From Candidatus Woesearchaeota archaeon (lineage in GTDB: Archaea > Nanobdellota > Nanobdellia > Pacearchaeales > GW2011-AR1): 64,000 nucleotides of DNA. Position 1 is the first letter of the stretch, and each line of letters begins with the position of its first letter. Shown one piece after another: positions 9,601 to 30,048 of the stretch. Under the pieces are notes generated by a model. That model saw only the letters and a program-made list of their open reading frames with translations. It was not told the DNA's origin and searched no databases. The position numbers and the translations under genes are program-made. The DNA lies in assembly GCA_964497435.1 (NCBI GenBank), contig CAZCCD010000002.1:10050-74049 (forward strand). Direction: 5' to 3'.

Positions 9601-10234
9601 CAGTTACATTAGATGTATCGTCTGATTGCCCTGTTATTGAAAAATTAACTTGAGTATTTGCAGATCTATTTATAGAAGTTGGATTTTGAGAAACCGCAAA
9701 AGGGGTTATACCATTTATCCTTATACTTATTGTTGTAAAGTTTATGGGAGAGTGCGAAGAATTTGAGGTTGAAATATTTAAGGTGTATGTTCCGGGGATT
9801 GATGTTGTTGCATTAAACCAAAAGTATTGCAATCCATTAGACGCCCAAAGATTAACAAGACTATTCATTGATGCATTAGTCCAATTCAAAACAGTGCTGG
9901 TAGTCATACTTGAGTTTGATGTGACATTAAATGTATTTGCTACAATAACAGTGCCATTAGAAGTGCCGTTAGAAGTATCAGTAAAAATAAAACCGACAGG
10001 AAGTACAATACTAACTAGCGTTACATTCATCGTACCTGCAACAGTATCTGTGTTATTTATAGAAATGTTATATGTAAATTCTACATTTTCATTCACTGAA
10101 AAAGATGTTCCGCTAACAGGTCCTATTATATGCGCCGCAAAAACAAGATACAGAGAAAGAACTAAAATTGCACTTACAAATAAAAATAAACCTATCTTAA
10201 TCCTACCTCTTTTATCCATCTTCCCTTTTAACAT
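6659..10234 (-). CDS. large secreted surface (S-layer-like) glycoprotein, N-terminal signal/anchor, poly-Ser linker, conserved C-terminal module plus TM anchor
   Basis: 1191 aa; N-terminal hydrophobic segment; very many N-x-S/T sequons throughout; SSGSSSSSSSSSSDGG linker; C-terminal YWWLWAIVAVLIAAVVIVILYRLRQ. Confidence 0.6.
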   Translation of the reverse strand: MLKGKMDKRGRIKIGLFLFVSAILVLSLYLVFAAHIIGPVSGTSFSVNENVEFTYNISINNTDTVAGTMNVTLVSIVLPVGFIFTDTSNGTSNGTVIVANTFNVTSNSSMTTSTVLNWTNASMNSLVNLWASNGLQYFWFNATTSIPGTYTLNISTSNSSHSPINFTTISIRINGITPFAVSQNPTSINRSANTQVNFSITGQSDDTSNVTVVEFSLPMGVTFVSNSNSTNATWSSFINTSSSLRWNLTAGGFKWGTTKNFAFNVTSVEGQNVNISLNVTRDNGGWNASTSSTTTNFAFSGYIKNETGHNVTGANVSIYQFAEQPNGPPKEIFVASALSGNDGSFTLSNINSSADLFLLKMYYRQGSNSTHENASGSVIKVGTILPPFPAMMYYPLPSFDFDDFQGNEFMKPPTLNGTTFYVEDAATINISAINTTAGGWQLFGYEVMEQKAGFPIESNFRTNVSVKQVYVPLNRQYTIMVLREPFTGISGFSFGNGSTCNGQFMNATHCPAPPRSNSTVTPTVAGQVLNVQLNLTVTRVYLSGCIGVSGNLTPIRNVTSIIPRMMPWTGFVPPMKDTGELNLSSTSQLNQSNPPCTMNGQFAWYNISLLNSNYLLEFYAKNTTNSTHDGVAEYVGMLQNVSLSATTTQNVTLGPLAGAYNNATGGDVNATKVTINFVNSTGGLITDDTPHVDLYLRNDSTFGELHYIIEDNQISQGSFVWPIPRNVIAKIKLFPNQAPPTEKTINLSKAVNNITIIQMNEGDGDLGFRKVNSSGQLEEMNVSAFPINMRFIRSTSTCDGINPGSSCVLTAMNNSEFNPLKALVAGKINMEMKLISSNTTITFYNFDMFSAKQPPMESVINDQASSGGSSANQVWQFGSFVPSEVYDYVVIGMPYSDSVINDAGSMNVSIPFLYDENWNVVWNASLGHTTSNITSDIDQYLGNSNNRSYNSTGYRNFLTTAGRTCSKTDSNLNGTTNTEYCYINTTSNMIYIRVPHFSGVAPNVIGNAPSSGSSSSSSSSSSDGGAGAAGSIHDVSESQFNSGYSRDLNVNDKLRFTLNSEYHFVELTGVTVAAATVKVSSTPQTSTFAIGETKKFEVTGDNFYDVAVTLNSIAATNGTNKANIKIIATSDPVASTPSSEQEEEAGSPITGAAVSETEEVTKEGKSYWWLWAIVAVLIAAVVIVILYRLRQ

Positions 10235-16875: not shown

Positions 16876-17498
16876 ATACTTCTAATAAAATGATTACAAA
16901 AAAACAAGCAGAACAAATAAAAAAACAGCTCCTTGAACAAATAGATAAGTCAGATATTCCAAACAAAGAAGAATTAAAATCTTCTATTGAATCAATGTCT
17001 CCTCAAGAACTTGAAGAATTTTTAAAGAAAAATAAATTAATAAAATCTCAAGGTGAATGCATTTTTTGTTCTATAATAGATAACAAAATTCCTTCATATA
17101 AGTTGGCTGAAAATAAAGAAGCCATTGCTGTGCTTGAAATAAATCCTATTTCAAAAGGACATACATTAATAATTCCAAAAACTCATTCAGATAAAGCATC
17201 AAAAAACTCTTACGATCTCGCAGAAGAGATGGCTTTAATAATATCTAAAGCATTTACTCTTTCTAGAGTTGACATAATTCCCTCAATTTTATTTGACCAT
17301 GAAATAATAAATGTCCTTCCTGTATACAAAGACGAGAGTCTTAATTCAAAAAGGAAAAAACATAGCGAAAAAGAGCTTGAAGAAATCCAAAACCAAATGC
17401 TTAAAGTTAAAGAAGAAAAACATCAAGAAAAACCAAAAGAAAAGAAAATCCATGTTTTTACAGACAAAGATACGTGGCTACCAAAAAGAATTCCATAA
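16872..17498 (+). CDS. HIT-family protein with degenerate histidine triad, Lys/Glu-rich C-terminal extension
   Basis: CIFCSII...LEINPISKGHTLIIPKTH is the HIT N-terminal half; triad position reads LFDHEIINVLP (only the central His retained). Confidence 0.55.
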   Translation: MNTSNKMITKKQAEQIKKQLLEQIDKSDIPNKEELKSSIESMSPQELEEFLKKNKLIKSQGECIFCSIIDNKIPSYKLAENKEAIAVLEINPISKGHTLIIPKTHSDKASKNSYDLAEEMALIISKAFTLSRVDIIPSILFDHEIINVLPVYKDESLNSKRKKHSEKELEEIQNQMLKVKEEKHQEKPKEKKIHVFTDKDTWLPKRIP

Positions 17499-18314
17499 TC
17501 CAGTATTCCATAAATAAAATAATATTAAAAGCGATATTAAAAAAACAGGGACAAAGACTATACCTTGTTTAATCTTAATTTTTTTGTATTTTTTCCTTAT
17601 TAGTTTTATCTCCTCACGATTAAGGCCTTCCCAGTTTGGCTTAATAATCTTTTTTCCAACCTTAACACTTTTATACAACCAATCTCCTTCTGTCAAAACA
17701 TTTGTTTTTGTTTCCCTAATCATACAAATACCATCGACAGTCCTAGCATAAATATAAAGATAAGGCATAATCAAAAGTATAAAACCAACTATGAGGAAAA
17801 TGCTCTCTAAAAAACCAAACAATATTATTAACAAACTAAATATCATAACAATGAATATTTTATTTTTTTCTTTTTTTAAATTTGTTTTAAATGCTTTATT
17901 AAATTCTTTATATTTTCTAAAACTCAAATAAATGGCAGTTATAATGCCATAAAATGATCCTATAAAAAGGAAAAGGAAAATAAAAATGACAAAGATTCTC
18001 AAATTATAAGAGAAAATATCTGTAAAAGGCAGAACACTTCCTAAAGCAATCATTAATTTTGCATCTCCTCCTGCAAATATCCTCGAATAATAAAAAATAT
18101 TTCCTATAGCAAAGAAAATTAGCAAGCCTATTAATCCCTGATAAAAAAATCCAAAATCATCATTAAAAAGACTGAAAAAAAACCTAAATCCTAATGCAAA
18201 AATCACTAAAGAAAAACTTATCCAATTCGGGATTTCCCTAGTTTTTATATCAGTAATGCTGGCAAAAACAATCCATATTAAAGCTAATAAAAAAAGTATT
18301 ATCACCTCTATCAT
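17478..18314 (-). CDS. archaeal prepilin/preflagellin peptidase (A24 family, PibD/FlaK/EppA-like)
   Basis: Polytopic; first Asp in ASITDIKTREIPNW, second in the FAGGDAKLMIALG (GGDxKL) motif. Confidence 0.7.
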   Translation of the reverse strand: MIEVIILFLLALIWIVFASITDIKTREIPNWISFSLVIFALGFRFFFSLFNDDFGFFYQGLIGLLIFFAIGNIFYYSRIFAGGDAKLMIALGSVLPFTDIFSYNLRIFVIFIFLFLFIGSFYGIITAIYLSFRKYKEFNKAFKTNLKKEKNKIFIVMIFSLLIILFGFLESIFLIVGFILLIMPYLYIYARTVDGICMIRETKTNVLTEGDWLYKSVKVGKKIIKPNWEGLNREEIKLIRKKYKKIKIKQGIVFVPVFLISLLILFYLWNTGLWNSFW

Positions 18315-18517
18315 GTTTTAAATAAAGAAAAAGTGTTTATAATTATTTTGCATAAAGGTTTCTTAATAAGTTAGGAATTCTTAAGTTTATTTAGATTAGT
18401 ATTAGTGATATAAAGAATTAATTATAGTGAGAAGTTTTCTATGTTAACAATTAAATAAATCTGCGAACAGAGTGAGACTAAATAATTTCTTGGGTTTTTA
18501 GTAAAAAATATCTTCAA

Positions 18518-18634
18518 TCACCTTCTAAAAACATCTAGACTTCGTTTTCCGCCGCCTTTTCTATAAGGATGTTTCTTCTTTTCCCTGAACTTACTCTTTT
18601 TCTTGTTTCTTTTTTCACTAAATCCATAATCCAT
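18518..18634 (-). CDS. candidate small basic protein (38 aa, Lys/Arg-rich)
   Basis: Hand-translated: MDYGFSEKRNKKKSKFREKKKHPYRKGGGKRSLDVFRR; below the 60-aa track threshold; coordinates approximate. Confidence 0.25.
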   Translation of the reverse strand: MDYGFSEKRNKKKSKFREKKKHPYRKGGGKRSLDVFRR

Positions 18635-18655
18635 ATTAATCAATTAAGCCTCTTT

Positions 18656-19348
18656 TTAACTTTTAAATGCTTCTTTTAAATTATCTACAAAAGCATGCAA
18701 GACACCTCTTTCAGACCTCTCCCTCATTCTTTCAAAGTCTTCTTTTTTATTCTTAGAGAAAATCCCTAGTTGTCCAATTACCTTATACACAATAACCATA
18801 AAAATAATCACTACAAAGAAAAGAAGTAATGACCAAAACCACGCATCTGTCAAAAAAACAATCCAAACAAAAGATTCTGCTATTGCTCTTAATATTCCGA
18901 TTTGAGCGAGGGCTATTGTCAAACCTAGTGATATTATAAAAGAAGTTCCTAATGAAAAAGAAAGAAAAACTGAAAATATCTCTTTAAACTTAAACACAAA
19001 AAAAATCCATAAAATAATGACAAAAAATAATGCAAGAGATAATGAATATGGCTCTCCAAAAAGAACTAAGAAAACAGGGCTTATGGCTGTAAAAAAATAA
19101 TTAAAACCATTAATAACAGGATTTTTAAGCAAAATCCTTCTTAACTCCTCCCCAATATATCCTGCATTGCTGTCAGCTATTTCTCCTTGAATATCTTCAA
19201 TTTTGTCAACTCCTTCTGTTAATTGCTCGTTAGTTTTTTCAAGATCTTGAATCTCATCTAAACCATCCTGAACTGCATTGACAAATACAAAAGAAAATGT
19301 AAATACCAATGCAAAGAATATAACAAACAAAAACCTATTTTTCCCCAT
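18656..19348 (-). CDS. membrane protein, hypothetical (N-terminal signal, acidic coiled segment, 4-5 TM)
   Basis: ORF plus hydrophobicity pattern; lies between prepilin peptidase and pilin genes. Confidence 0.4.
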   Translation of the reverse strand: MGKNRFLFVIFFALVFTFSFVFVNAVQDGLDEIQDLEKTNEQLTEGVDKIEDIQGEIADSNAGYIGEELRRILLKNPVINGFNYFFTAISPVFLVLFGEPYSLSLALFFVIILWIFFVFKFKEIFSVFLSFSLGTSFIISLGLTIALAQIGILRAIAESFVWIVFLTDAWFWSLLLFFVVIIFMVIVYKVIGQLGIFSKNKKEDFERMRERSERGVLHAFVDNLKEAFKS

Positions 19349-19383
19349 TAAAATAATAATTAATAGAAATTTTTAAACCTTGG

Positions 19384-19968
19384 CTATGGTCCTCTCCTTC
19401 GCCTTCCCCTAAAACTTCTCTGTATCTTTCTTAATCCAGTTATTGCGGCAGCAGCTTCATCAGCAGATTCAATTGCCTTAATCTCCTCAACCTGACCCTT
19501 CCTTTTTGCAGCCCATCTAGCAATCATATTGCTTCCAAGAGTCAATCCAATAAATATGATCAAAGCAACTATTAGAGCTAAAAATATTCCAATAGCTCCT
19601 AAGGCTGCTGTAATAGAAAGCATGAAAATAGCAATCTTATTAACCACCCCTATAATAGAAACAGCAATTCCAATTCCTGCGGCAATTGTATATTGTACCC
19701 ATGGAGTCCGAAAAAACATCATTAATTGCAAAATGTCATACATTCCTGCAAAAATAATAGCCATAACTATTACTCCCAAAATAACTTCTTTCCATGATCC
19801 ACCCAGGTTAAAAAAAGAAACAGCCCCTGAATACCATCTTCCAGACTCAATAGAATTATCTATAAAGACATTAACCTCTGCACTTACCAATCCTACGAAA
19901 GATAAAAAAATCCCTAGCAACAATAACAAACTAAAAAATCTTCTCTTCCTATCCTCTTTTTTATTCAT
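19384..19968 (-). CDS. membrane protein, hypothetical (signal peptide, 4 TM, Arg-rich C-terminus)
   Basis: ORF plus hydrophobicity pattern. Confidence 0.4.
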   Translation of the reverse strand: MNKKEDRKRRFFSLLLLLGIFLSFVGLVSAEVNVFIDNSIESGRWYSGAVSFFNLGGSWKEVILGVIVMAIIFAGMYDILQLMMFFRTPWVQYTIAAGIGIAVSIIGVVNKIAIFMLSITAALGAIGIFLALIVALIIFIGLTLGSNMIARWAAKRKGQVEEIKAIESADEAAAAITGLRKIQRSFRGRRRRGP

Positions 19969-20224
19969 AAATAAAATAAACTCTTAATGTTTATAAACAT
20001 TTCTTTAGAAAAATAGCAGCTCGCAATCTCGCTGATTGTATTATAAATAAGACTGATTAATAAAGAGAGAGTAAGTTAGCAAATCTTAGATATGACTATC
20101 TACAAATTTATTCATTAAAGTTAAATTAAGCATAATAATCTTGGGCATCTAAATCTAAAAAATTAATGCTCAGAAAAGATCGTAGTTATTGTTAAGCTAT
20201 AAACTTGATTAAATACATCTACAT

Positions 20225-20665
20225 CTAACTCTGAGTGTATAAATCAGGATTAAGAATCTTGCAAGTCTCTCCATTAACCTTATCGTCTTCTTTTAAGTTC
20301 TCATTATCACAAAGCTGTTCAGCTAAATTCCTAACAGTGTTAGCAGTATCGCTGCAAGAATCTTCAGGGAGCAGATGTGTGAATGTAGCATATTGTTCAA
20401 GATAATCACAATTTACAAACTGCTTCTTCCCAGCTATCTTGACTTCCTTAAACTCATTGCAATAACTAGTTTTAAGATTATTACTTCCTGAAACATCACA
20501 TGCCTTGGCAGCTACTTCTAAATCTCCTGGAAGAATTCCAATTTTTCCAAATATAAAATCCCATCCTTTAATAAATCCGACAGCAACAACAACTAATACA
20601 ATAATTCCCAGTATAAGCAATATTAAAGTTGAAATAGGCAGTCCTTGAGCCTTTTTATTAAACAT
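20225..20665 (-). CDS. type IV pilin-like protein with archaeal class III signal peptide
   Basis: From the internal Met: MFNKKAQG|LPISTLILLILGIIVLVVVAVGF (basic N-region, Gly before a hydrophobic stretch); Cys-rich globular part. The upstream 29 codons of the track ORF are probably not translated. Confidence 0.6.
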   Translation of the reverse strand: MFNKKAQGLPISTLILLILGIIVLVVVAVGFIKGWDFIFGKIGILPGDLEVAAKACDVSGSNNLKTSYCNEFKEVKIAGKKQFVNCDYLEQYATFTHLLPEDSCSDTANTVRNLAEQLCDNENLKEDDKVNGETCKILNPDLYTQS

Positions 20666-20734
20666 CTTAAGCCTCTCTTTCATATATAGGAATAACAAAC
20701 AAGTGTTTATAAATATTTTTAATCTGTTTGACTC

Positions 20735-20880
20735 ACTCGTAAACTCGCTCATCCATTAGTATTACTTTGAATCAGATTTCATTGTTTACTTTTATTGGAT
20801 ATAATCAATCATCAAATTGTTTTTTATCAACAATCATATAAATTTATGAGCGAAGCGAACTTATTCATTGATTGACGTTT
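20735..20880 (+). repeat. inverted repeat pair (ctcgctcat ... atgagcgaagcg) about 100 bp apart at the 5' end of pilin gene 20225..20665
   Basis: gactcactcgtaaactcgctcatcc ... tatgagcgaagcgaac; GC-rich islands in an AT-rich spacer. Confidence 0.35.
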
Positions 20881-20886
20881 GATTTC

Positions 20887-21288
20887 TTATTCTTCATTAC
20901 TCTTTAATTTATACTCAACACGAAAAATACTCTTTTCTTCTTTCCAGAATAAAAAGCCAGACGAATCCTTTAATTCTTGGTACAAAATTATTTCTCCATT
21001 TTCATCCATCTTATAATCAACCCTGCTTAAATCTTTATGAAACGAATAATCTTCTATTTGTAAATTGATTTTCTCCATCCATTCAAGACTCTCAAATACC
21101 TTGCCTATCTTACTATCAGACACTATAAAACTGAATAAAGCCAAGGCACAAACTAATACAACACCTATAACCAAAATACCTATACTTATGTCTCCTCTCT
21201 TGGTTTTTTTCAAAAACCAAGGATAAAAAAATTTCTTATTTTTTTCTTTAGATTTTATTTTGCTTTGAAATAACTTATCCATTTTCAT
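20887..21288 (-). CDS. pilin-like protein (class III signal KKTKRG|DISIGILVIGVV)
   Basis: A TTG at ~21213 gives (M)KKTKRG|DISIGILVIGVVLVCALALF, a textbook prepilin leader; the track ATG start adds a 26-aa extension. Confidence 0.5.
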   Translation of the reverse strand: MKMDKLFQSKIKSKEKNKKFFYPWFLKKTKRGDISIGILVIGVVLVCALALFSFIVSDSKIGKVFESLEWMEKINLQIEDYSFHKDLSRVDYKMDENGEIILYQELKDSSGFLFWKEEKSIFRVEYKLKSNEE

Positions 21289-21604
21289 TCACCCACTCCT
21301 TTATTTTATCTTTATTTTTGTCATTTAATTCAAAAGCCAGTAATGTTTTAAGATTAATAGAGCTTTCAGGAATATCTTGGGAATCTTCACCAAATGTTTT
21401 TAAAGAAACTCCAACATCTTTCAGTTTTCCAAGAAGAGATGAAGCATAAATAAAAAGAAACAAAGTCACAATAATAACTATTGTAGCTATAATCCAGACA
21501 ATTCCTTCACTCGCCTGTGCTTTTTTATCCAGGCTTGACCCTAACTTAAAGGAGATGTCATAAGAAGAACCTTGGTTCTTTTTATTACTTAGCATTTTTA
21601 TCAA
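21275..21604 (-). CDS. pilin-like small protein (KKAQA followed by TM helix)
   Basis: LDKKAQASEGIVWIIATIVIIVTLFLFIYA; shares the KKAQ[GA] motif with 20225..20665. Confidence 0.45.
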   Translation of the reverse strand: MIKMLSNKKNQGSSYDISFKLGSSLDKKAQASEGIVWIIATIVIIVTLFLFIYASSLLGKLKDVGVSLKTFGEDSQDIPESSINLKTLLAFELNDKNKDKIKEWVNENG

Positions 21605-22088
21605 CTTTTCTCACCCCTGTCAAAATTTTAATTAAATATTGTTTATCATCTTTTAAAGAATAAAATCTTCTTTCAACGCACTTTGATAATTTCTCGTATT
21701 CTTTATCCCTTTGAATTTCACATTCAGAAGCAATATTCAAATTTCCATCTTCTATAGAAAAAACATTTTTGTTTAAATCTTCAACACCAAAAAAATCAGC
21801 CTTAATATAATACTCTTGATAATCTATTGTTTCTTCAGGTTCAAAGTTCAAATTACATTCTTCAAGAAAATTTCTTTTAAATTCGTCATTAAAACTCTCA
21901 TTCTTAAATAATTCTTGATTTAATTCTCCTTTAAAAGAAAAACAATCAGCAACATTGTTAGCTAAAATAGATGCCTCAACCTCTCTAACATCATAAGGAT
22001 ATCCATAGTAATTGCTAACCATATAAACTATTGCTGTAGCTGTAAAAGCCAGTATAAAAAATAAATATACTGAAATGATTTTATCCAT
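21585..22088 (-). CDS. pilus-locus secreted/anchored protein, hypothetical
   Basis: N-terminal signal anchor, acidic Cys-containing globular part; operon position. Confidence 0.4.
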   Translation of the reverse strand: MDKIISVYLFFILAFTATAIVYMVSNYYGYPYDVREVEASILANNVADCFSFKGELNQELFKNESFNDEFKRNFLEECNLNFEPEETIDYQEYYIKADFFGVEDLNKNVFSIEDGNLNIASECEIQRDKEYEKLSKCVERRFYSLKDDKQYLIKILTGVRKVDKNAK

Positions 22089-22515
22089 TTTTTTCCCTCA
22101 CTATAATATAAACTTTACCTTCAGGAGAAACATCAATTCCTGGGTTAACATCATTAAAGAAAGTGTAAGAATACCCTCCCTTCTCTGTAAGCTTCACATT
22201 AACAACATTTCCATCAATTCTTACAGCATTATTATAATTATCTTTAAACCATTCTTCATCAGCCTTAGTTCCATCCTGTAAATCAAGAGTTATCTCCATT
22301 CCTGGCTTAGAGGCATCAATAAGCAAGGCAATATCTTTTGCATAATTTTCCTCTAAAGATTTTCCATTTGCCTGTTGCTTCCATAAAAATAAAACCAAGA
22401 TGCTTAAAAAAGCAACAATCAAAACAAGAAATAAAACATTTTCTGCCAGCAAGTTTCCTTTAGTTCGACCAAACATGTATGAAGTAGTTAATCTTTTGCC
22501 TCTTTTTTTATCCAT
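22081..22515 (-). CDS. pilin-like protein (MFGRTKG|NLLAENVLFLVLIV...)
   Basis: Basic N-region then Gly then a long hydrophobic helix; overlaps neighbours by a few nt. Confidence 0.45.
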   Translation of the reverse strand: MDKKRGKRLTTSYMFGRTKGNLLAENVLFLVLIVAFLSILVLFLWKQQANGKSLEENYAKDIALLIDASKPGMEITLDLQDGTKADEEWFKDNYNNAVRIDGNVVNVKLTEKGGYSYTFFNDVNPGIDVSPEGKVYIIVREKNG

Positions 22516-22545
22516 TTCTATAAAAGAGATAGCTAATTAATAAAT

Positions 22546-23508
22546 CTAACTAAGAGTGACTATTTTCTCACAATTCAAAGCCTCAAATTTTTTAGAATCA
22601 ACTTCAAGAACAGTAGGAGCTGTGAACTGGTTTTCAACTCCTCTTCCTTGAACTTGTATTGCAGCTATTTCTGGTTCAAAACTATTTGCAATCTTTTGAG
22701 ACACAGTATCCCCTATTATAGCTCCACCAATGGCGGATACTCCTATAACGACCGCTCCACCAATCAATCCTACGGGTCCTAAAAATGCAGTAATTGCTCC
22801 AGCTACAAACCCTCCGCCAGAACCTATTAAAGACCATAGAAAACCACTAGTCTCACTAGTTATTCCCATAACAACAAAATACTTCTTCCCTGTGTTTATC
22901 TTCCCAAAAGTTCCTTCTATCTTATATTGATCAGATGCACTTTGTTTGAGGGAATCTAAGTTATTTGTCCCAAAAATATATTCTGAATATGTTATTTCTT
23001 TTCCAGGAGCTTTTACATTGCTTAAATAATCATACAACCCATCCTTGCTTATGTTTCCGTCAACAACTCCTTCAAGTTCTTTCAAGCTGCCATCAAAATA
23101 AATTTCATCGCACAAAGAGCAATAATTACTTTTGATTGCCTCTTTTCCTATGTAATCAACTCTTCCTTCTCCAAACATCCACCAGCAAGAAGCCATTTCA
23201 TCAGCAAGGATTTCGTAGACTTCATTTACATTTTTTACTTTCTTTACATCTGGCTTTGAGAGCCCTTCACAACTTCCGTCCTTTGTAATACAAATATATT
23301 CTCTCCTGCAGTCTAAGTCAACTCCCTGTCTTATAACTCCAGAGCTTCCCCTTAAAATAACAGAATTATGGCATAACTCTTCAGCACTAACATCACTAGG
23401 ATTTAATATAAAAATAAAACCTAAAATAACCAAAAGACTAAAAATTACTATAACAATGCCAACAATTTGTGCCGAAGTTAACTCACCAAGTTTTTTTTTG
23501 ACTATCAT
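22546..23508 (-). CDS. large pilin-like/pilus-tip candidate with class III-like leader and C-terminal Gly-zipper TM
   Basis: MIVKKKLG|ELTSAQIVGIVIVIF...; C-terminal GFLWSLIGSGGGFVAGAITAFLGPVGLIGGAVVIGVSAIGGAIIG. Confidence 0.45.
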   Translation of the reverse strand: MIVKKKLGELTSAQIVGIVIVIFSLLVILGFIFILNPSDVSAEELCHNSVILRGSSGVIRQGVDLDCRREYICITKDGSCEGLSKPDVKKVKNVNEVYEILADEMASCWWMFGEGRVDYIGKEAIKSNYCSLCDEIYFDGSLKELEGVVDGNISKDGLYDYLSNVKAPGKEITYSEYIFGTNNLDSLKQSASDQYKIEGTFGKINTGKKYFVVMGITSETSGFLWSLIGSGGGFVAGAITAFLGPVGLIGGAVVIGVSAIGGAIIGDTVSQKIANSFEPEIAAIQVQGRGVENQFTAPTVLEVDSKKFEALNCEKIVTLS

Positions 23509-23603
23509 TTAAGCAGCTCCTAATTTTTTTAACAAAAGATACATTCCTATGAATAAAAGCAAAAATAATGCAATCCACATTATATATTTTCCAAGATTTT
23601 CTG

Positions 23604-24053
23604 TCATGCCTTACTTATTATTATTTTTCCTCCTTCTTTCTTAATTAATATGTTTGTTAAAGAATCTTCAACATCTTCGATCTTTATTTTATTAAAATCT
23701 TGAAGATTTTCAAAAATACTACAGGTTCCTTTTTCATCACATTTATTTTCATCTTGGCATATGCACAAACAATTTTTTTGCAGGCAAGAAAGGGGTTTCT
23801 CTTCATCTCCAATAAAGCCAACAACATACCATCCTTCAGGAGTTATTCCAGAAACAACCTCGCTTCCATTACTACTTTTTATAACATCTTTAAGTCTTTC
23901 TAATGTAGCTTCTGCTTGTTTATATTCATCAGAATAAATCTTGGCGTAATAAAGGCGGAATGCAAAATAAACTAAAAAAATCAAAACAATTACTGCAATA
24001 ACCATTTTTGAGCTTTCCTCAGGAAGCCAGACAGATCCTCTTTTGTTTTTCAT
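23604..24053 (-). CDS. pilin-like Cys-rich protein (MKNKRGS|VWLPEESSKMVIAVIVL...)
   Basis: Basic N-region, Gly, Glu near +5/+6, TM helix; CLQKNCLCICQDENKCDEKGTC cluster. Confidence 0.4.
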   Translation of the reverse strand: MKNKRGSVWLPEESSKMVIAVIVLIFLVYFAFRLYYAKIYSDEYKQAEATLERLKDVIKSSNGSEVVSGITPEGWYVVGFIGDEEKPLSCLQKNCLCICQDENKCDEKGTCSIFENLQDFNKIKIEDVEDSLTNILIKKEGGKIIISKA

Positions 24054-24202
24054 CTTAAAAATGGAATAAATACCTCTCCAGCAACGTTTCTAAAAAAAGG
24101 ATTTATGTAATCTTTAAAGGCAAAATAAAGTCCTAATATGACTGTCCCAGCCACTAAAATCCCAAGAATGATCTTAATCAATGTGCTAATCTCAAAATCC
24201 AT
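24050..24202 (-). CDS. candidate 50-aa membrane mini-protein (stop overlaps next gene start, ATGA)
   Basis: Hand-translated MDFEISTLIKIILGILVAGTVILGLYFAFKDY...; coordinates approximate. Confidence 0.3.
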   Translation of the reverse strand: MDFEISTLIKIILGILVAGTVILGLYFAFKDYINPFFRNVAGEVFIPFLR

Positions 24203-24203
24203 T

Positions 24204-24359
24204 TTACCATCCCCTGAATATATCTTTAATTTTATCGATTAATGAAATGCCTTTTCCTTTAAGCAAAAATATATTAATAAGAACTATGACTAAGACAGCG
24301 GCAGCTATTATCCACCATATTAAATAATCAACAGCAACCCCCTTTTTTTTATTATCCAT
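24204..24359 (-). CDS. candidate 51-aa membrane mini-protein
   Basis: Hand-translated MDNKKKGVAVDYLIWWIIAAAVLVIVLINIFLLKGKGISLIDKIKDIFRGW; coordinates approximate. Confidence 0.3.
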   Translation of the reverse strand: MDNKKKGVAVDYLIWWIIAAAVLVIVLINIFLLKGKGISLIDKIKDIFRGW

Positions 24360-24424
24360 ATAAAAATTAAATAAAGATAGTTAATAAAATTATCCTTAAC
24401 AAGATAAATAAAAAACTTAATTGC

Positions 24425-26590
24425 TTATCCGCTAAGAACGACTGCAGACAGAATAAATAAGATTATTGACGCAAGCAAAGCTGTTACAAAATAAAGAACA
24501 ATTCCCATCTGTAAATTTATTCCTGTCTTGTTTATCCTCTCTAACTTGTCTTCTCCAGAATCAACAACAGCCAATGTCCTAGTCAATATAAAAACAATCT
24601 GTATTAAATAAATTCCAACAGCTATTTGTAAGAAATAAGGAGGTATCATTTCCTTAACATCAAATAAATCAAGAATCTGTTGCAGATTAAATCCAGCACC
24701 AGCTTCTGGCAATGTCACAGATAAATTCAGCCTTGATAAAATAGAAGTTATCATTGCAGCTAATCCAACAACAATTCCTGAAAGCAATGGTGCAAGGAAA
24801 GTCATATTGCTTTTCATGTCAGAAGCTATTTCGGCAAGTAAATCTTTAAGTCTCTGAGTTATTTTTTGTATATTTTTTACATATTGGGAAATACTTACTA
24901 GGCTTGAGGCAGCAATCTTAAGCCCTTTTTTCGCAGATTCAACAAGAATCTTCATGCTAGTAGATATTAATTCTGAAGGATAATAGATTATGGCTCCCCT
25001 CTTATTGTCAAAAATAGCCCTATCAACATCCATCCCCATTTGGCTTACATTGTAGTTAACTCTCCTAAAAAAATCCTCTGTCCTTAATCCTTTCGAAGAT
25101 TCAGCTACTTTCCCAAAAGCAAGCTCTGGAGGAACACCATTCCCTATTCTATTTCCGAGCTGGAATAATGAATTATTAAACTCTTCTTCAAGCTCTCTAG
25201 TGTTCCTTCTTTCAACTATCAAAGAACTTGTCTTGTCTCTGTAAGCAATAGAAAAAAACAAGGCTAATCCCAAAGGAAAAAACATCCCTAAAATTAGTGA
25301 ACCTATCCCAAAAGGCCCTCTTCCATCATCTGTAAATCCAAAAAACTTCTCATCTCCAAAAAAACTCAATCCAAGCTCTGTAAATGTGTAATCTTTTTGC
25401 AGTCCAAGAGAATTAGGTAAAGACGTAAACTGAAATATTAAAGGCAAAAGCCCTATTAAAAAAAACGGCAGGCATAGTATAAATGCATTGATAAAGTGTT
25501 TCTTGCTTTTGTATTCATTATAATATGGGTTTCTTTCAAGCAAACTTGACTCTCCATAACCTCCTGGCCTCAAAAATATTATTTTATCTGTAAGATAATA
25601 GACAAAAAAAGGCACTAATAAATTGAATATAACAAATATATGATACCATTTTACAAGCCCCCCAAGGAGTGCAGATGCTAAAGGAAGTAATGCTAATCCT
25701 AGAGTCGGAAGAACAACTCCAAGCATATAGACATTTGTTAAAGGACTTCTTACAGAATGAGTAAACTTCAACATCTTATCATAAACCCCATCTAAAATAA
25801 CTTGAAGAGAACTCTCAAGCAAATCAACTCTTCTTGCATCATTAGGCTCAAATAAACTGCTCTCAATCAAATGAAAAGCTTCTATAAACTCTGATGAATA
25901 ATCTCTCCAGCTCTCAAGATAATAATCAAGGCTTTCTTTTATGGTCGAAAATTTTCCAACTTCAACATTATAAAAAATCTTCTTGAAATCGAGGGCTAGA
26001 GGGGGTTGTAAATTCTCTGCTGCAAAAGCTATTGCCTTTTCGAGATTAGGAGTGTGCCTCATGTAAACAACAACATAAAGAACAGCAGGAACCATCTGGC
26101 TAGAGGCTTTGAGTCTCCATTTATTTGCAAGCCTTGCAGGATACGCCTTTACAAAATAAAATAAGAATGTTGCTAAAATCAACATCAAAAAGAAAAACAA
26201 AAATGGAAAGGCAGTCAAAATGCTGTCGAAATCTCCACCTTCACTATTAAGCAAGGCTATGACAATAGAAATAAAAAATCCTACAATAAAAACACCAACA
26301 AAAGACATTACAGCTAAAGAAATCGCCTCTCTAGGATCAACATCTAAATGAGCTGTATCTAAATGTTTCTTAATTTCTTCTTCGTCTTTTTTTGAGCCCT
26401 TTATTCTTATAACATTTCCTAGAGATTTGCATAGTCTTTCATACCTTGTTAATTCAGGAGCTAATTCTTCTTTAAAATCTATATATTCTTTGCTATAATC
26501 AACATTACCTATATTAGAGGTTCTTATTTTTCCTTCTATCTTAGCACCATATTTTCTAAGAATATCCTCGACTTTCGGATTCACAACCAT
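24425..26590 (-). CDS. polytopic membrane protein, probable pilus platform protein (FlaJ/TadC/PilC-like)
   Basis: 721 aa, about 9+ TM helices in two clusters separated by cytoplasmic domains; lies directly between the secretion ATPase and the pilins. Confidence 0.45.
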   Translation of the reverse strand: MVVNPKVEDILRKYGAKIEGKIRTSNIGNVDYSKEYIDFKEELAPELTRYERLCKSLGNVIRIKGSKKDEEEIKKHLDTAHLDVDPREAISLAVMSFVGVFIVGFFISIVIALLNSEGGDFDSILTAFPFLFFFLMLILATFLFYFVKAYPARLANKWRLKASSQMVPAVLYVVVYMRHTPNLEKAIAFAAENLQPPLALDFKKIFYNVEVGKFSTIKESLDYYLESWRDYSSEFIEAFHLIESSLFEPNDARRVDLLESSLQVILDGVYDKMLKFTHSVRSPLTNVYMLGVVLPTLGLALLPLASALLGGLVKWYHIFVIFNLLVPFFVYYLTDKIIFLRPGGYGESSLLERNPYYNEYKSKKHFINAFILCLPFFLIGLLPLIFQFTSLPNSLGLQKDYTFTELGLSFFGDEKFFGFTDDGRGPFGIGSLILGMFFPLGLALFFSIAYRDKTSSLIVERRNTRELEEEFNNSLFQLGNRIGNGVPPELAFGKVAESSKGLRTEDFFRRVNYNVSQMGMDVDRAIFDNKRGAIIYYPSELISTSMKILVESAKKGLKIAASSLVSISQYVKNIQKITQRLKDLLAEIASDMKSNMTFLAPLLSGIVVGLAAMITSILSRLNLSVTLPEAGAGFNLQQILDLFDVKEMIPPYFLQIAVGIYLIQIVFILTRTLAVVDSGEDKLERINKTGINLQMGIVLYFVTALLASIILFILSAVVLSG

Positions 26591-26654
26591 TTTTCCACTC
26601 TTTTAAAAATTATCTTTTAAAAAATAAGGAAGATTAATTAATAAATGTTTAGAA

Positions 26655-27677
26655 TCAAGACTCTTTAATGACTCTCCTGATATACCATAAACTCAAAGCG
26701 CCGACAGGGAAACTAAAGAAATAATAAATGATCCTTGTCAAAAAAGCAACAAGCAGCGCTATTGGTTTAATCACCCCCATTGCAGAATAAAGCAATGTCA
26801 TGGTTACTTCAGTGGCTGCAATTCCTCCAGGAAGAATAGTTAAAGCACCTATAATATTTCCAAGCGTCACAACAATGATTATAGAAAGAAAGTTAACATG
26901 AAAACCAAATGCCAAAAATAAGAAATAAGCTGTTAAATAATTAAATAACCAGAATAAAAAAGCCAAGAAAAAAGCACCAATCATTGTTTTTTTGTTTTTT
27001 ACTGATTTCCTGAAAGTATCGGCAAAAATTCTTATTTCTTTATTAATAAAATGCTCAAAATCTTCTGGCTTCTTAAACCTGCCATTCACAAAGCTAAAGA
27101 AATGCAACCTCTTAAAAAAGGCTCCTATGTTAAAATGCATTTTTCTTAATGTAAAATACAAAGTGAATCCTACAGAAATCAAAACAAAGGTTAACAATCC
27201 TTCAAGTATTAATTTAAGAGTGTTTGATATCTCGACATAAATCAAAATAAAAAATATAGAAAAGATAGCAAAAAAAGCCAAAATCATTAATTGATAAAAT
27301 TTATCAGCAATAACATATGCTAACATAGATGTTTTAGATTTTTTAAATTTTTTTGCAAGGAAATGGGCTCTGAAAGGCTCTCCGCCTATTCCTGCACCCG
27401 GAGTTATTGAATTAAAAAAAGCGCCTGCCAAAAGAACATTTAACAAAAACCAAAAATTTCCTTTGAATAGTTTAGTATATAAAAAATTCCATCTTAGATT
27501 CCACACAATAAAAGTCATAAATGTTGATAAAACAGCTAGTGATAACCATAAAAGATCTCCATTAGAAAAAATCAGGTAGAGTTCATAAAAATCAATTCCT
27601 TTTAATATCAAATACAAAATACCAATAAAGGCTAAAATAACAATAAGACTTATTACTCTTTTAGCAGTTTTCTTCAT
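26655..27677 (-). CDS. UPF0104/LPG-synthase-TM (flippase-like) family membrane protein
   Basis: Polytopic; NSITPGAGIGGEPFRA matches the family's conserved P..G.GG.E loop. Confidence 0.45.
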   Translation of the reverse strand: MKKTAKRVISLIVILAFIGILYLILKGIDFYELYLIFSNGDLLWLSLAVLSTFMTFIVWNLRWNFLYTKLFKGNFWFLLNVLLAGAFFNSITPGAGIGGEPFRAHFLAKKFKKSKTSMLAYVIADKFYQLMILAFFAIFSIFFILIYVEISNTLKLILEGLLTFVLISVGFTLYFTLRKMHFNIGAFFKRLHFFSFVNGRFKKPEDFEHFINKEIRIFADTFRKSVKNKKTMIGAFFLAFLFWLFNYLTAYFLFLAFGFHVNFLSIIIVVTLGNIIGALTILPGGIAATEVTMTLLYSAMGVIKPIALLVAFLTRIIYYFFSFPVGALSLWYIRRVIKES

Positions 27678-27708
27678 CTAGCCTAAAAGTAAAAATTATT
27701 TATAAATC

Positions 27709-30048
27709 TTATATTTTCTTCTTTTTAAGCTGTTCCCTAAGCCAGAGCTGCCATAATGGAAAAACCCTCTCTGAAACAGGCAACCCAACTTCTTCTCTAA
27801 CTTCTTCTGAAATTTTATGAAATGCGTCATTAGACAAAACATTAAACTTAGCTTCTAAAATTCTTGAGTTTTTTGTTTTATTTGAAATATCAACTAATTC
27901 CTTTTTTATCTTAGCCCTAAGGAGTATATTATCATAAACAGCGTCCCAATTTCCGGCCCACCCCTTCACATTAGATGCAATATCTTTTATGACTTCAGAA
28001 TCTCCGTTAATCAAATCTTCAGAAATCTCTAATTCATCTTTATCTACATTATATTTAAGTAAATCAACAAATCCTTTCTCTTCTAAGGGATCATTCTTCC
28101 AATGCTTCCTTACTTCTGAAACTTGAATTAAGCGTCGCCATGAATGTAAACCATCAGGACTTTTAATTGGATTCGCCACAGCTATTACATCTGTTGCCTT
28201 AAAACTAGTTGCCGGAACTTCGAGGTCATTTACGACTCTATCAAAAACAGCATAAGGACTTGCTCCGTGAATTGTTCCTGCAACAACATTAGCCAAAGCT
28301 CCAATCCTCATTGCTTCATAAAGGGCTTTTGCTTCTACTGACCTAATTTCTCCTATAATTAAGCAACTATCTCCTAATCTTAAGCTAGTCCTTATACCAT
28401 CATCTGCAGAAACTTCTGCCCCTGTCTTTAAAAGGGCTGATCTTACTTTCATCCTTAATATATCATAATTAATCTTTCTTAGAGAATCAACAGGCAATTC
28501 TAAAGTATCTTCCAATACAATAATCCTATATTTAGGGATAATCTCTAGCATTAAGCTTCCAAGAAAACTCGTTTTTCCAGATCCTCTTGTTCCTGCAATT
28601 AATATTGTCCTTGCTCCATCAATAAGGAAACTAAAAATGCCTGCAGCAATCGGATTAATCATCTTATTCTGTATAAATAATGGCAATGTCCATGGCTCAT
28701 CTCTATGTCTTCTAATAGAATATGCTAAACCTCTTGGAGAAAGTGGCTCTTGGATTATTGCAACCCTAGCATTGATGTTCTCTATATTTAATTGAGTGTC
28801 TAATATAGGATTAGCTTCATCAAGAGGCCTTCCTGAAATCATCCTAAATTTGGCAGCCCATGAATTAACATCTTCCTGACTTGGAATAATATTTGTAATA
28901 CACTCATCAAATTTTTGATGTCTTATAAATATTGGATTTAAAGATACAGGAGCATTTAAGGAGATGTCTTGAAGATTTTCATCCTGAAGAAGGACCTCTA
29001 AAATTCCAAATCCAATTGTATGCCTTACGAGTATAGATGATAATTTATTTAAGTCAGAGTAACTCATTCTTATTCCTTGAGCCTGTGATAAATCTCTTAA
29101 AAGATCTCTTGAAATGTTTAAAAAAACCTGTCTTACTCTTTCAGTATCAATAAACTCTTCTGCCTTTGGTTGGTGCTCCATTAAAACACCCTTAGCAAGA
29201 TTCAACAACATGTTATGATCTTCGCTTAGAGAATTTTCAGGAGGTAATAAATGATAGATAAACTTAGATTCACCTTCTCTTCTCAAAATGGTTACAATAG
29301 ATTCATCAAAACCCCCTTCCCTAACTTTATATTGTCCTATAATCTCTGCTCCTTTAGGCAAGTCAGAAACAAGCCTCGTGAAAGTGTAATTCGGAATTGT
29401 ATCTGGCCTAAATATTTTATTATAAATTTCCCTTGATCCTAACTTATATTCATTAAGATAAGGCAATGCACTTTGTATTATCTTTGTGTTTTTAATCCTG
29501 TTAAATACTCTTTCCAAAAGATGCACGTAGCTTTGTTGGCTTGGCTGGTATAGTTTTTGTTTCTCAAGCAAAGCCCTCGCCTCGAATAAAAATCTCCTTA
29601 TCTCTGAGTAAGCAGCAACAGGATCTCTTTTTAATAAAAAAAGAAAATTAAAAATATCATTATATCTTTTAGAGGATTCCTGAGAAGAGTTTAATGAGAG
29701 TCTGTCTTGTGAAAGAATCCTTTCCTGGCTTGAAAAATAAACATAAAGATTAGCTATTTCCATCAACATCTCTACCTCATTAAAATCATAATTATAATTC
29801 TTCTGTTGAACAAGGACAATCCTTGAAACATTTGGATTTTTAATTAAAGAATCTATGACTCTTTCCATTACATCAGGATAGTCGGCAATACTTGGAACAA
29901 AAGGCACACCAAGATAATTAATATATAATACATCCTCACCCCCTTCCCTATTCACTTCAAATGCATACAAAGGTGTCTCTTTATTAAATTTCATGAATAT
30001 AAAAAGTAGAAAGGGTTTAATAATTTTTACAAGATGTAAAGTAATCAT
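27709..30048 (-). CDS. type II/IV secretion-system ATPase (FlaI/PilB/TadA/VirB11 superfamily) with N- and C-terminal extensions
   Basis: Walker A IAGTRGSGKTSFLGS, Walker B RIIVLEDTLE, Asp box, His box GTIHGASPYAVFDR. Confidence 0.85.
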   Translation of the reverse strand: MITLHLVKIIKPFLLFIFMKFNKETPLYAFEVNREGGEDVLYINYLGVPFVPSIADYPDVMERVIDSLIKNPNVSRIVLVQQKNYNYDFNEVEMLMEIANLYVYFSSQERILSQDRLSLNSSQESSKRYNDIFNFLFLLKRDPVAAYSEIRRFLFEARALLEKQKLYQPSQQSYVHLLERVFNRIKNTKIIQSALPYLNEYKLGSREIYNKIFRPDTIPNYTFTRLVSDLPKGAEIIGQYKVREGGFDESIVTILRREGESKFIYHLLPPENSLSEDHNMLLNLAKGVLMEHQPKAEEFIDTERVRQVFLNISRDLLRDLSQAQGIRMSYSDLNKLSSILVRHTIGFGILEVLLQDENLQDISLNAPVSLNPIFIRHQKFDECITNIIPSQEDVNSWAAKFRMISGRPLDEANPILDTQLNIENINARVAIIQEPLSPRGLAYSIRRHRDEPWTLPLFIQNKMINPIAAGIFSFLIDGARTILIAGTRGSGKTSFLGSLMLEIIPKYRIIVLEDTLELPVDSLRKINYDILRMKVRSALLKTGAEVSADDGIRTSLRLGDSCLIIGEIRSVEAKALYEAMRIGALANVVAGTIHGASPYAVFDRVVNDLEVPATSFKATDVIAVANPIKSPDGLHSWRRLIQVSEVRKHWKNDPLEEKGFVDLLKYNVDKDELEISEDLINGDSEVIKDIASNVKGWAGNWDAVYDNILLRAKIKKELVDISNKTKNSRILEAKFNVLSNDAFHKISEEVREEVGLPVSERVFPLWQLWLREQLKKKKI

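Follow-up and report, generated by a model that had tools for sequence, protein, structure and literature searches.

Type IV pilus loci are well known in Archaea and have already been reported from members of the DPANN group (Diapherotrites, Parvarchaeota, Aenigmarchaeota, Nanoarchaeota, Nanohaloarchaeota). One of the closest described systems is the Epd pilus of Methanococcus maripaludis (EpdA-L, EppA), known as "system 1" of the archaeal type IV filaments (TFF), in which an ATPase, a platform protein, many class III pilins and a dedicated peptidase are encoded in one cluster, the main pilin is very small and devoid of a globular domain, and some of the substrates possess Gln at position +1. 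Pilins without a globular domain are known from both the archaeal Epd and the bacterial Tad pili, and an Epd-type system has been reported in some DPANN (preprint 10.64898/2026.04.22.720090). The parts of the Tad/Flp pili are an ATPase, a platform, a pilin of ~45 aa along with larger pseudopilins, and a peptidase that lacks the methyltransferase domain, while the archaellum (FlaB, FlaF-J, FlaK) relies on a homologous ATPase, platform and peptidase. Here we describe a locus composed of similar parts, found in a stretch of 64,000 nt from a Candidatus Woesearchaeota archaeon (assembly GCA_964497435.1, contig CAZCCD010000002.1), referred to as "the window", in whose numbering all ORF (open reading frame) coordinates are given. 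We liken this locus to the Epd system, which is non-motile and adhesive; the locus is known here from its genes, and the mechanism by which it would work is modeled on what is established about type IV filaments.

The region 17478-30048 of the window likely carries the chromosomal genes of a type IV filament (pilus) machine, adhesive in function and distinct from the archaellum, in a DPANN archaeon of the Pacearchaeota/Woesearchaeota type. Four defining parts can be discerned by sequence: a hexameric-type ATPase, a fused two-domain T2SSF platform, an A24 peptidase, and eight substrates bearing leaders. The region comprises fifteen ORFs, all on the minus strand, which from 30048 down to 17478 encode proteins of 779, 340 and 721 aa, two of 51 and 50 aa (s51 and s50), seven of 109-320 aa (p149, p320, p144, p167, p109, p133 and p175), two of 194 and 230 aa, and one of 278 aa. 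Nine of them (s51, s50 and the seven of 109-320 aa) are small and N-terminally hydrophobic. The original prediction, which was made from the sequence of the window and described a pilus-like locus with seven pilin candidates, gave the coordinates and strand of these ORFs correctly, as well as their tight or overlapping packing; the seven ORFs of 109-320 aa overlap or are nearly contiguous.

The conservation of the neighborhood in related genomes was analyzed by scanning one genome per GTDB species with the platform protein. Relatives of this protein were found in 534 species, and the best 80 of the 534 loci were compared with the window's fifteen proteins by tblastn; 31 of the 80, each 20 kb or longer, are called "long" below. 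The results show that the same gene order is kept in the 80 loci, namely ATPase, variable gap, platform, s51, (s50), p149, p320, p144, p167, (p109), p133, (p175), variable gap, peptidase. None of the 31 long loci lacks the ATPase or the peptidase, and s51, p149, p320, p144 and p167 are present in 27, 28, 29, 29 and 27 of them, respectively. Searches with family hidden Markov models revealed no paralogues of the cluster families elsewhere in the window.

Analysis of the N-termini of the small proteins reveals a common pattern. When the window's 219 ORFs with a length of 40 aa or more were put through a crude scan for class III signals, 13 were retained, seven of them within 20225-24359 (hypergeometric P ~1e-4). 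We then aligned the N-termini of the orthologous ORFs from the 80 loci and counted the leader motif, using composition-matched shuffles of the same 17 residues as controls: [KR][GA] precedes the hydrophobic core in 82-100% of the orthologs versus 24-38% of the shuffled sequences, i.e. 2.5 to 4 times more often than expected, and its distance to the core is constant in any one family. Eight families that are otherwise unrelated possess a short basic leader ending with N-K-[KR]-[GA], after which a conserved mature N-terminus begins immediately; the consensus sequences are as follows (a slash marks the predicted cleavage site): NKKG/IISEYLPWLL in s51, NKKG/FLLAEETLKI in p149, NKKG/ELTTQQIV in p320, NKKG/NILTENIIFI in p144, NKKG/(T)DKIISVYWF in p167, NKKA/QIGETITW in p109, NKRG/DIPITILVIG in p133, and NKRG/QGLSTNAIIL in p175. 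Several families possess Glu at +4/+5 (at +5 in p149 and p144) or Gln at +1 (p109 and p175), the latter matching the residue required by the euryarchaeal pilin peptidase EppA (PMC4390842). About one fifth of the p167 orthologs, including the copy from the window, lack the leader, and in these proteins Met directly precedes the predicted +1 residue, which makes them a natural control for the predicted cleavage site. Thus, class III-type signals, for which a check had been proposed, are conserved across orthologs. The original prediction had counted leaders in five of its seven pilin candidates; the seven small proteins exist and the signal is present, but the leaders are found in eight families, including the 51-aa mini-ORF, and the pilin-like set has more than seven members. 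The KKAQ[GA] motif pointed out in that prediction is present in both of its forms, KKAQG and KKAQA.

A minor fraction of the orthologs (~12%) possess long leaders, in which the nearest in-frame ATG is located at least 14 aa upstream. These leaders are bipartite and follow the pattern M-x-[KR][KR]G ... F[FL]PKN[KR][KR]G/, which is common to different pilin families, and are present in the window in p144 (22456-22515), p133 (21193-21288) and p109 (21518-21604), and among the relatives in the loci L023, L039, L043, L048, L050 and others. The recurrence of the pattern across pilin families suggests a genuine extended or duplicated leader rather than a series of mis-called starts. For p133 in the window, whose leader is 32 aa long if counted from the ATG, the previously proposed TTG start at 21213 would leave a leader of 7 aa; this start is possible, while the pattern of the long leaders argues against it but does not settle the matter.

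The 779-aa protein is identified as a member of the PilB/GspE/TadA/FlaI superfamily by its matches to T2SSE (PF00437, E 2.4e-13, 49.9 bits at a cut-off of 24.9) and, with E ~1e-36 each, to the NCBIfam models of FlaI and TadA. Both of the latter scores are far under the respective cut-offs (125.7 bits versus 550 for the FlaI equivalog NF058587; E 4.7e-36 and 124.7 bits versus 373 for TadA). Among the proteins in the PDB, to which the alignment begins at residue 230, the best match is 2oap (Archaeoglobus GspE, GspE2; E 2.6e-30), followed by CpaF (5.6e-23) and FlaI (1.7e-16), and there is a weak match to the model of BasE from the bindosome (E 1.6e-18). The Walker A motif reads GTRGSGKTS. The earlier call of a secretion ATPase is borne out by these matches to T2SSE, FlaI/TadA and 2oap. 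Orthologs of this protein are present in 68 of the 80 loci (median identity 71%) and begin with MQFKEG.PLYS, i.e. at the equivalent of M19, so the translation probably starts at M19 and the first 18 codons of the listed ORF are untranslated. Counted from this corrected start, the N-terminal extension comprises ~200 aa; it distinguishes the protein from the Epd ATPase and agrees with a rule reported for the ATPases of archaeal TFF, namely that their N-terminal domains are specific to the subsystem.

Just upstream of M19 (window 29994-30048, on to ~30030) the in-frame translation T-K-Y-F-K-L is kept in many loci. At the nucleotide level this stretch is an A/T-rich box resembling AAATATTTTAAA, with the version aaaaattattaaa in the window, located ~25-30 nt before the ATG, and probably serves as the TATA box in the promoter of the operon.

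The 721-aa protein is extremely conserved and belongs to a family of largely unnamed sequences. In the protein collection its 120 top-scoring homologues share 67-76% identity with it, and nearly all of them are unnamed or annotated as "hypothetical", with a few JGI entries described as "Flp pilus assembly protein TadB"; the median identity across the 80 loci is 68%. A profile search of 1.84 billion cluster representatives yielded 1170 family members, the remoter of which are labeled as hypothetical proteins from Woesearchaeota or Aenigmarchaeota. To obtain a diverse alignment we collected 45 members that are 24-42% identical to the protein from the window and scanned each of them against Pfam: 19 of the 45 match T2SSF (PF00482; best E 3.2e-10), the matches are located either in the N-terminal or in the C-terminal half, and one member exceeds the gathering score in two stretches. 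The family profile also aligns with the cytoplasmic domain of GspF (2vmb, E 0.027) in the second half, at FQLGNR..G.P.E.A. Comparison of the N-terminal half with the C-terminal half by hhalign gave E 2.5e-4 and a probability of 43%, in register, and pairs the equivalent "transmembrane (TM) helix plus start of soluble domain" segments of each half. The hydropathy scan indicates ~9 TM segments and two soluble domains (~150-283 and ~450-595). From these sequence comparisons we conclude that the 721-aa protein belongs, as a platform with two fused domains and a divergent sequence, to the T2SSF (PilC/TadC/FlaJ) superfamily, a relationship visible only at the level of the family. Hence T2SSF similarity, on which the FlaJ/TadC-like assignment of this protein had been staked beforehand, exists in both halves of the family, whereas the protein itself has no direct match to T2SSF. 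Both known systems differ in this part: "system 1" possesses two separate platform genes (10.64898/2026.04.22.720090), and in Tad the platform is divided between TadB and TadC.

The 278-aa protein matches Peptidase_A24 (PF01478, E 4.7e-14, 53.2 bits at a cut-off of 26.5) and, weakly, Arc_PepC (E 0.035). Its catalytic Asp motifs, D22 (TDIKTREIP) and D84 (AGGDAKL), are both kept in the orthologs as QD[LI][KR].RE and AGGDAKL. The score against the FlaK model (E 1.3e-10, 41.2 bits) is far under the cut-off of 330, and the model of EppA is matched only at the C-terminus (E 0.0088); the peptidase has ~6 predicted TM segments, in contrast to the 9-TM peptidase of the EppA type in "system 1". The original prediction was right about the A24 family and the GGDxKL motif but regarded the peptidase as detached. 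It is instead a conserved terminal core member of the cluster, since in each of the 31 long loci it is the last cluster gene and lies downstream of the pilins.

Among the small proteins, s51 is a candidate for the major pilin. Its mature form of ~44 aa would consist of a hydrophobic helix and a short amphipathic tail, which is the size of Flp pilins; orthologs were found in 63 of the 80 loci, 59 of them with [KR][GA], and their median mature length is also 44 aa. Flp pilins are characterized by the motif G/xxxxEY, and the predicted mature start of s51, xxS[ED]Y, resembles it. The similarity is confined to size and motif: s51 matches no Flp family in Pfam, a search of the solved structures with the s51 profile retrieved no pilin, including those of Tad, and by these searches s51 is not detectably homologous to Flp. 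The orthologs of s50 (25 of the 80 loci) start with MAELTINQLIKIILG and none of them possesses [KR][GA]; the start of s50, MAELTINQLIK, resembles the mature N-terminus of p320 with its initial ELT. This protein may act as an accessory factor or as a pilin-like subunit devoid of a leader.

The remaining families differ in their distribution and in the region following the N-terminal helix. Orthologs of p149 are present in 58 of the 80 loci (49 with the motif), those of p320 in 60, of p144 in 56, of p167 in 49 (40 with the motif), of p109 in 19, of p133 in 38, and of p175 in 20, all 20 with the motif; the p175 orthologs support a start at or near 20665. Both p149 and p175 possess a Cys-rich C-terminal domain, while p320, in which the leader of the window copy ends with KKLG, contains a Cys-rich globular region and is, in our view, a candidate tip or adhesin subunit. 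The window copy of p320 has a Gly-rich second hydrophobic segment near the C-terminus (residues 247-265), which is unusual for a pilin; it is shared by a part of the orthologs, which end with ..TLS, while those without it end with ..ITKA. For p144 we gathered 1635 homologues, all hypothetical. The confident AlphaFold2 (AF2) model of this protein (pLDDT, the predicted local distance difference test score, 80.5) comprises a disordered leader, a long helix (residues 21-68) and a five- to six-stranded beta-sheet, and the helix starts at the predicted +1 position, residue 21. Neither the model nor the p144 profile retrieved a significant match to a solved pilin.

The cluster also contains genes that vary among its relatives. 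The 340-aa protein is a member of LPG_synthase_TM/UPF0104 (PF03706, E 4e-50, 171.4 bits at a cut-off of 33.4; TIGR00374, E 3.9e-43), as originally predicted, and tblastn found it in 10 of the 80 loci and in two of the 31 long ones. It was regarded from the beginning as foreign to the standard set of pilus components, and its lack of conservation agrees with this; we rejected it as a core component because of its sporadic distribution. In the related loci the gap between the ATPase and the platform, in which it is located (window 26591-27708), ranges from 45 bp to 6.8 kb and contains different genes, e.g. a family of 159-aa soluble proteins in 13 loci (including L006, L017, L018 and L021), UPF0104 in nine, UvrA/B/C in two (L051 and L061), and large surface proteins in some. 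This gap is a hotspot of variable gene insertion. The 194-aa and 230-aa membrane proteins, which match nothing in Pfam, were detected by tblastn in two and five of the 80 loci: in L005 (17404-18428) and L018 (16261-17391) the pair separates the pilin-like genes from the peptidase, and a homologue of the 230-aa protein stands alone at that spot in L024 (19876-20373). They were likewise rejected as core parts, being unconserved in the cluster. Because they are rare in related loci, UPF0104 and the two membrane proteins are best regarded as variable cargo.

Table 1. Genes of the pilus-like cluster in the window and pilin-like ORFs with peptidoglycan hydrolase domains in related loci. A slash marks the predicted cleavage site.
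Feature	Locus	Coordinates	Strand	Remarks
Secretion ATPase	window	27709..29994	-	T2SSE match; listed ORF to 30048; ortholog-supported start M19
UPF0104 / LPG_synthase_TM flippase-like membrane protein	window	26655..27677	-	Pfam and TIGR00374
Platform, 721 aa	window	24425..26590	-	family-level T2SSF
s51, prepilin-like, 51 aa	window	24204..24359	-	MDNKKKG/VAVDYLIWW...
s50, hydrophobic-helix protein, 50 aa	window	24050..24202	-	without basic leader
p149, minor pilin-like	window	23604..24053	-	leader MKNKRG/
p320, largest pilin-like	window	22546..23508	-	MIVKKKLG/ELTSAQIV...
p144, minor pilin-like	window	22081..22515	-	..GRTKG/NLLAENVLF...
p167, pilin-like, leaderless copy	window	21585..22088	-	MDKIISVYLFF...
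p109, pilin-like	window	21275..21604	-	..LDKKA/QASEGIVWII...
p133, pilin-like	window	20887..21288	-	..FLKKTKRG/DISIGILVIG...
p175, pilin-like	window	20225..20665	-	MFNKKA/QGLPISTL...; ORF runs to 20752
Two membrane proteins, 194 aa and 230 aa	window	18656..19968	-	Sec-type N-termini
A24 prepilin (class III signal) peptidase, 278 aa, with C-terminal domain	window	17478..18314	-	Peptidase_A24
p133 orthologs with SLT	L018; L023; L048; L049; L050	15254-16096; 15292-16122; 15606-16469; 15249-16070; 16320-17054
p144 orthologs (four) with SLT	L016; L019; L034; L041	10588-11628; 7756-8796; 11084-12088; 14333-15292		SLT C-terminal
Further pilin-like ORFs with SLT	L022; L070	12337-13125; 7221-8078
p167 orthologs with inserted Amidase_2	L006; L017	14525-15655; 16711-17901		E 2e-26
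p109-like ORF with Amidase_2	L024	16473-17738

In the related loci some of the pilin-like proteins are fused to peptidoglycan hydrolase modules. SLT (lytic transglycosylase) or Amidase_2 (N-acetylmuramoyl-L-alanine amidase) domains were found on such proteins in ~14 of the 80 loci and in at least four pilin families (Table 1), e.g. SLT on the p133 orthologs from five loci, with E down to 1.3e-15. Modular minor pilins are established in bacteria, as in Streptococcus sanguinis, where PilB carries a vWA module and PilC a lectin module (PMC8179133); in the related Pacearchaeota loci a module is likewise grafted onto a small pilin moiety. The difference is that the modules of the related loci are peptidoglycan hydrolases, that the copies from the window have none, and that the archaeon itself has no murein for them to remodel. 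Papers that do not mention pili describe large extracellular SLT proteins of Pacearchaeota/Woesearchaeota and take them as a hint of bacterial hosts (PMC8204110, PMC9723730, PMC11537232), and the literature that we searched contains no description of pilin-hydrolase fusions.

According to the proposed mechanism, prepilins would be inserted into the membrane, and the A24 peptidase would cut off the leader behind Gly or Ala. Bound to the platform, the ATPase would then lift the mature subunits from the membrane into a helical filament. Its bulk would likely be made of s51, which is predicted to be all helix like the Flp and Epd pilins, while p149, p320, p144, p167, p109, p133 and p175 would be minor or tip subunits that prime the assembly and carry the binding functions. 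As the locus contains no archaellum accessory genes, the filament would be a thin, adhesive, possibly retractile pilus and not a motor, most likely serving in the attachment to surfaces or host cells. The role in adhesion or host attachment, also put forward in the original prediction, is one that we infer, and the hydrolase modules on the pilin orthologs of related loci lend it indirect support. The target would probably be bacterial cells, because the same families of minor pilins carry peptidoglycan-cutting modules in the relatives; for the locus in the window, which lacks such a module, a bacterial host is an extrapolation from these relatives.

Several observations weigh against the interpretation of the locus as a pilus machine. 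The 721-aa protein, when used as a single sequence, matches nothing in Pfam (E up to 1), NCBIfam or the PDB; a shallow profile of its close homologues retrieved no solved structure, and the AF2 model built from 24 close homologues (pLDDT 54) is too poor for a fold search. None of the small proteins from the window matches Pfam, and among 60 members of the nine small-protein families the only match was the SLT module, with no pilin family. This also sets them apart from the Epd pilins, as those of the window match neither the class III signal nor the pilin families of Pfam. Consequently, we do not claim membership in a known pilin family, and it is the predicted class III signals and the overall architecture that carry the identification of these proteins as pilins. 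The choice of s51 as the major pilin was made from its size, position and conservation. Furthermore, no ORF with an SLT or amidase domain is present in the whole window, nor is there a recognizable adhesin or hydrolase module in its own locus.

Among the alternative explanations, the one that fares best accepts the same type IV filament machine but assigns it to a short pseudopilus or a device for the uptake of DNA or nutrients, similar to Com pili, type II secretion or the bindosome. The core parts are common to all type IV filaments and the sequence alone is silent on the output, the many minor-pilin-like genes combined with a single ATPase resemble pseudopilus systems, and Pacearchaeota are thought to scavenge nucleotides (PMC8204110); the weak match of the ATPase to BasE points in the same direction. 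On the other hand, the cluster contains no substrate-binding domains, no ComEC/DprA-like genes and no genes of secreted enzymes, while the Flp-sized subunit and an ATPase closer to GspE2 and CpaF fit surface pili of the Epd/Tad type, and the hydrolase modules on the minor pilins of the relatives imply exposure outside the cell and reach to the wall of another cell. We therefore regard the uptake device as improbable. The cluster shares the set of parts with Tad/Flp and its ATPase resembles CpaF and TadA, but it differs in the TadA score, the fused platform, and the absence of TadZ, secretin and TadD, none of which would be expected in an archaeon.

Far less probable is the possibility that the small ORFs encode ordinary signal-anchored membrane proteins, with [KR]-G as a by-product of the positive-inside rule and with the ATPase and peptidase serving other substrates. 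Basic residues are indeed common before N-terminal TM helices and no match to a pilin family or fold was obtained, but a mere by-product would account neither for the excess of the motif over the shuffled expectation at a fixed position, nor for the same N-K-[KR]-[GA] end in eight otherwise unrelated families, the conserved Glu at +5 or Gln at +1, the leaderless variants that begin at +1, and the strict synteny with the ATPase, platform and peptidase.

Least probable of all, and rejected here, is the archaellum operon implied by many automatic FlaI/FlaJ/FlaK-type annotations of DPANN genomes and by papers that list flaI, flaJ and flaK as motility genes, since FlaI and FlaK, the best NCBIfam matches of the ATPase and peptidase by E-value, are missed by wide margins in score, TadA scores as high as FlaI, GspE2 and CpaF precede FlaI in the PDB, and the archaellum-specific families (archaellin, FlaF/G/H, FlaC/D/E and FlaX) have no counterpart in any of the 15 cluster proteins (Pfam, E up to 1) or in 60 orthologous small proteins of the pilin families (E up to 0.01). 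The same scores and missing genes uphold the earlier remark that archaellum accessory genes are absent, and of the proposed adhesion pilus as opposed to a motility apparatus they support the second half.

Beyond the adhesive type IV filament that we favor, a more specific role can be envisaged, which we consider possible but rather doubtful: the pilus could be used to grapple and breach bacterial cells, with the minor pilins of the tip making contact with the host. In that case, recognizable murein hydrolases would be attached to the pilus in about one sixth of the related species, while the organism analyzed here would use unrecognized Cys-rich modules, those of p320, p149 and p175.

Outside the cluster the window (G+C ~31%, with no tRNA genes detected in a tRNA scan) carries archaeal chromosomal genes, e.g. 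that of the large subunit of PolD, DP2 (57649-62541, minus strand), which contains an intein and a LAGLIDADG endonuclease. Another ORF on the minus strand (3867-6467, 866 aa) possesses intein splicing, LAGLIDADG and HTH (helix-turn-helix) domains. A 1191-aa ORF (6659-10234, minus strand) without Pfam domains has a class III-like N-terminus, MLKGKMDKRG/RIKIGLFLFVSAIL, and could encode a large surface protein that the peptidase of the cluster also processes. Two further large proteins on the minus strand contain dockerin type I repeats, one in four stretches (39656-41509) and the other together with a MopE-like metal-binding motif (42036-44654); both probably function at the cell surface or in the interaction between cells.

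The novelty lies in a cluster that extends across Pacearchaeota/Woesearchaeota and has a fused, highly divergent platform, unannotated pilin families including one pilin of Flp size, the peptidase as the terminal gene, and murein hydrolase domains on the pilin-like subunits of relatives. Pacearchaeota/Woesearchaeota are abundant, uncultured archaea with tiny genomes. The platform and every pilin of the cluster are annotated as "hypothetical" and bear no Pfam signature, which is probably the reason why a published study describes the components of type IV pili as "missing in DPANN genomes"; this view was used to assign ultra-small cells bearing pili, seen by cryogenic transmission electron microscopy, to Candidate Phyla Radiation (CPR) bacteria (10.1101/2020.05.14.094862). 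The same annotation gap explains why such genes are read as motility (archaellum) genes in other papers. A defined locus with predicted cleavage sites and a 44-aa candidate major pilin offers targets for metaproteomics, antibodies and cryo-electron tomography, and the hydrolase-pilin fusions of the relatives link the pilus with a lifestyle on bacteria that has been speculated about for these archaea (PMC8204110, PMC9723730, PMC11537232). If the grapple-and-breach role were true, the pilus would serve for attachment and entry in an archaeon-on-bacterium episymbiosis or predation, and pili on ultra-small cells would be no basis for calling them CPR bacteria.

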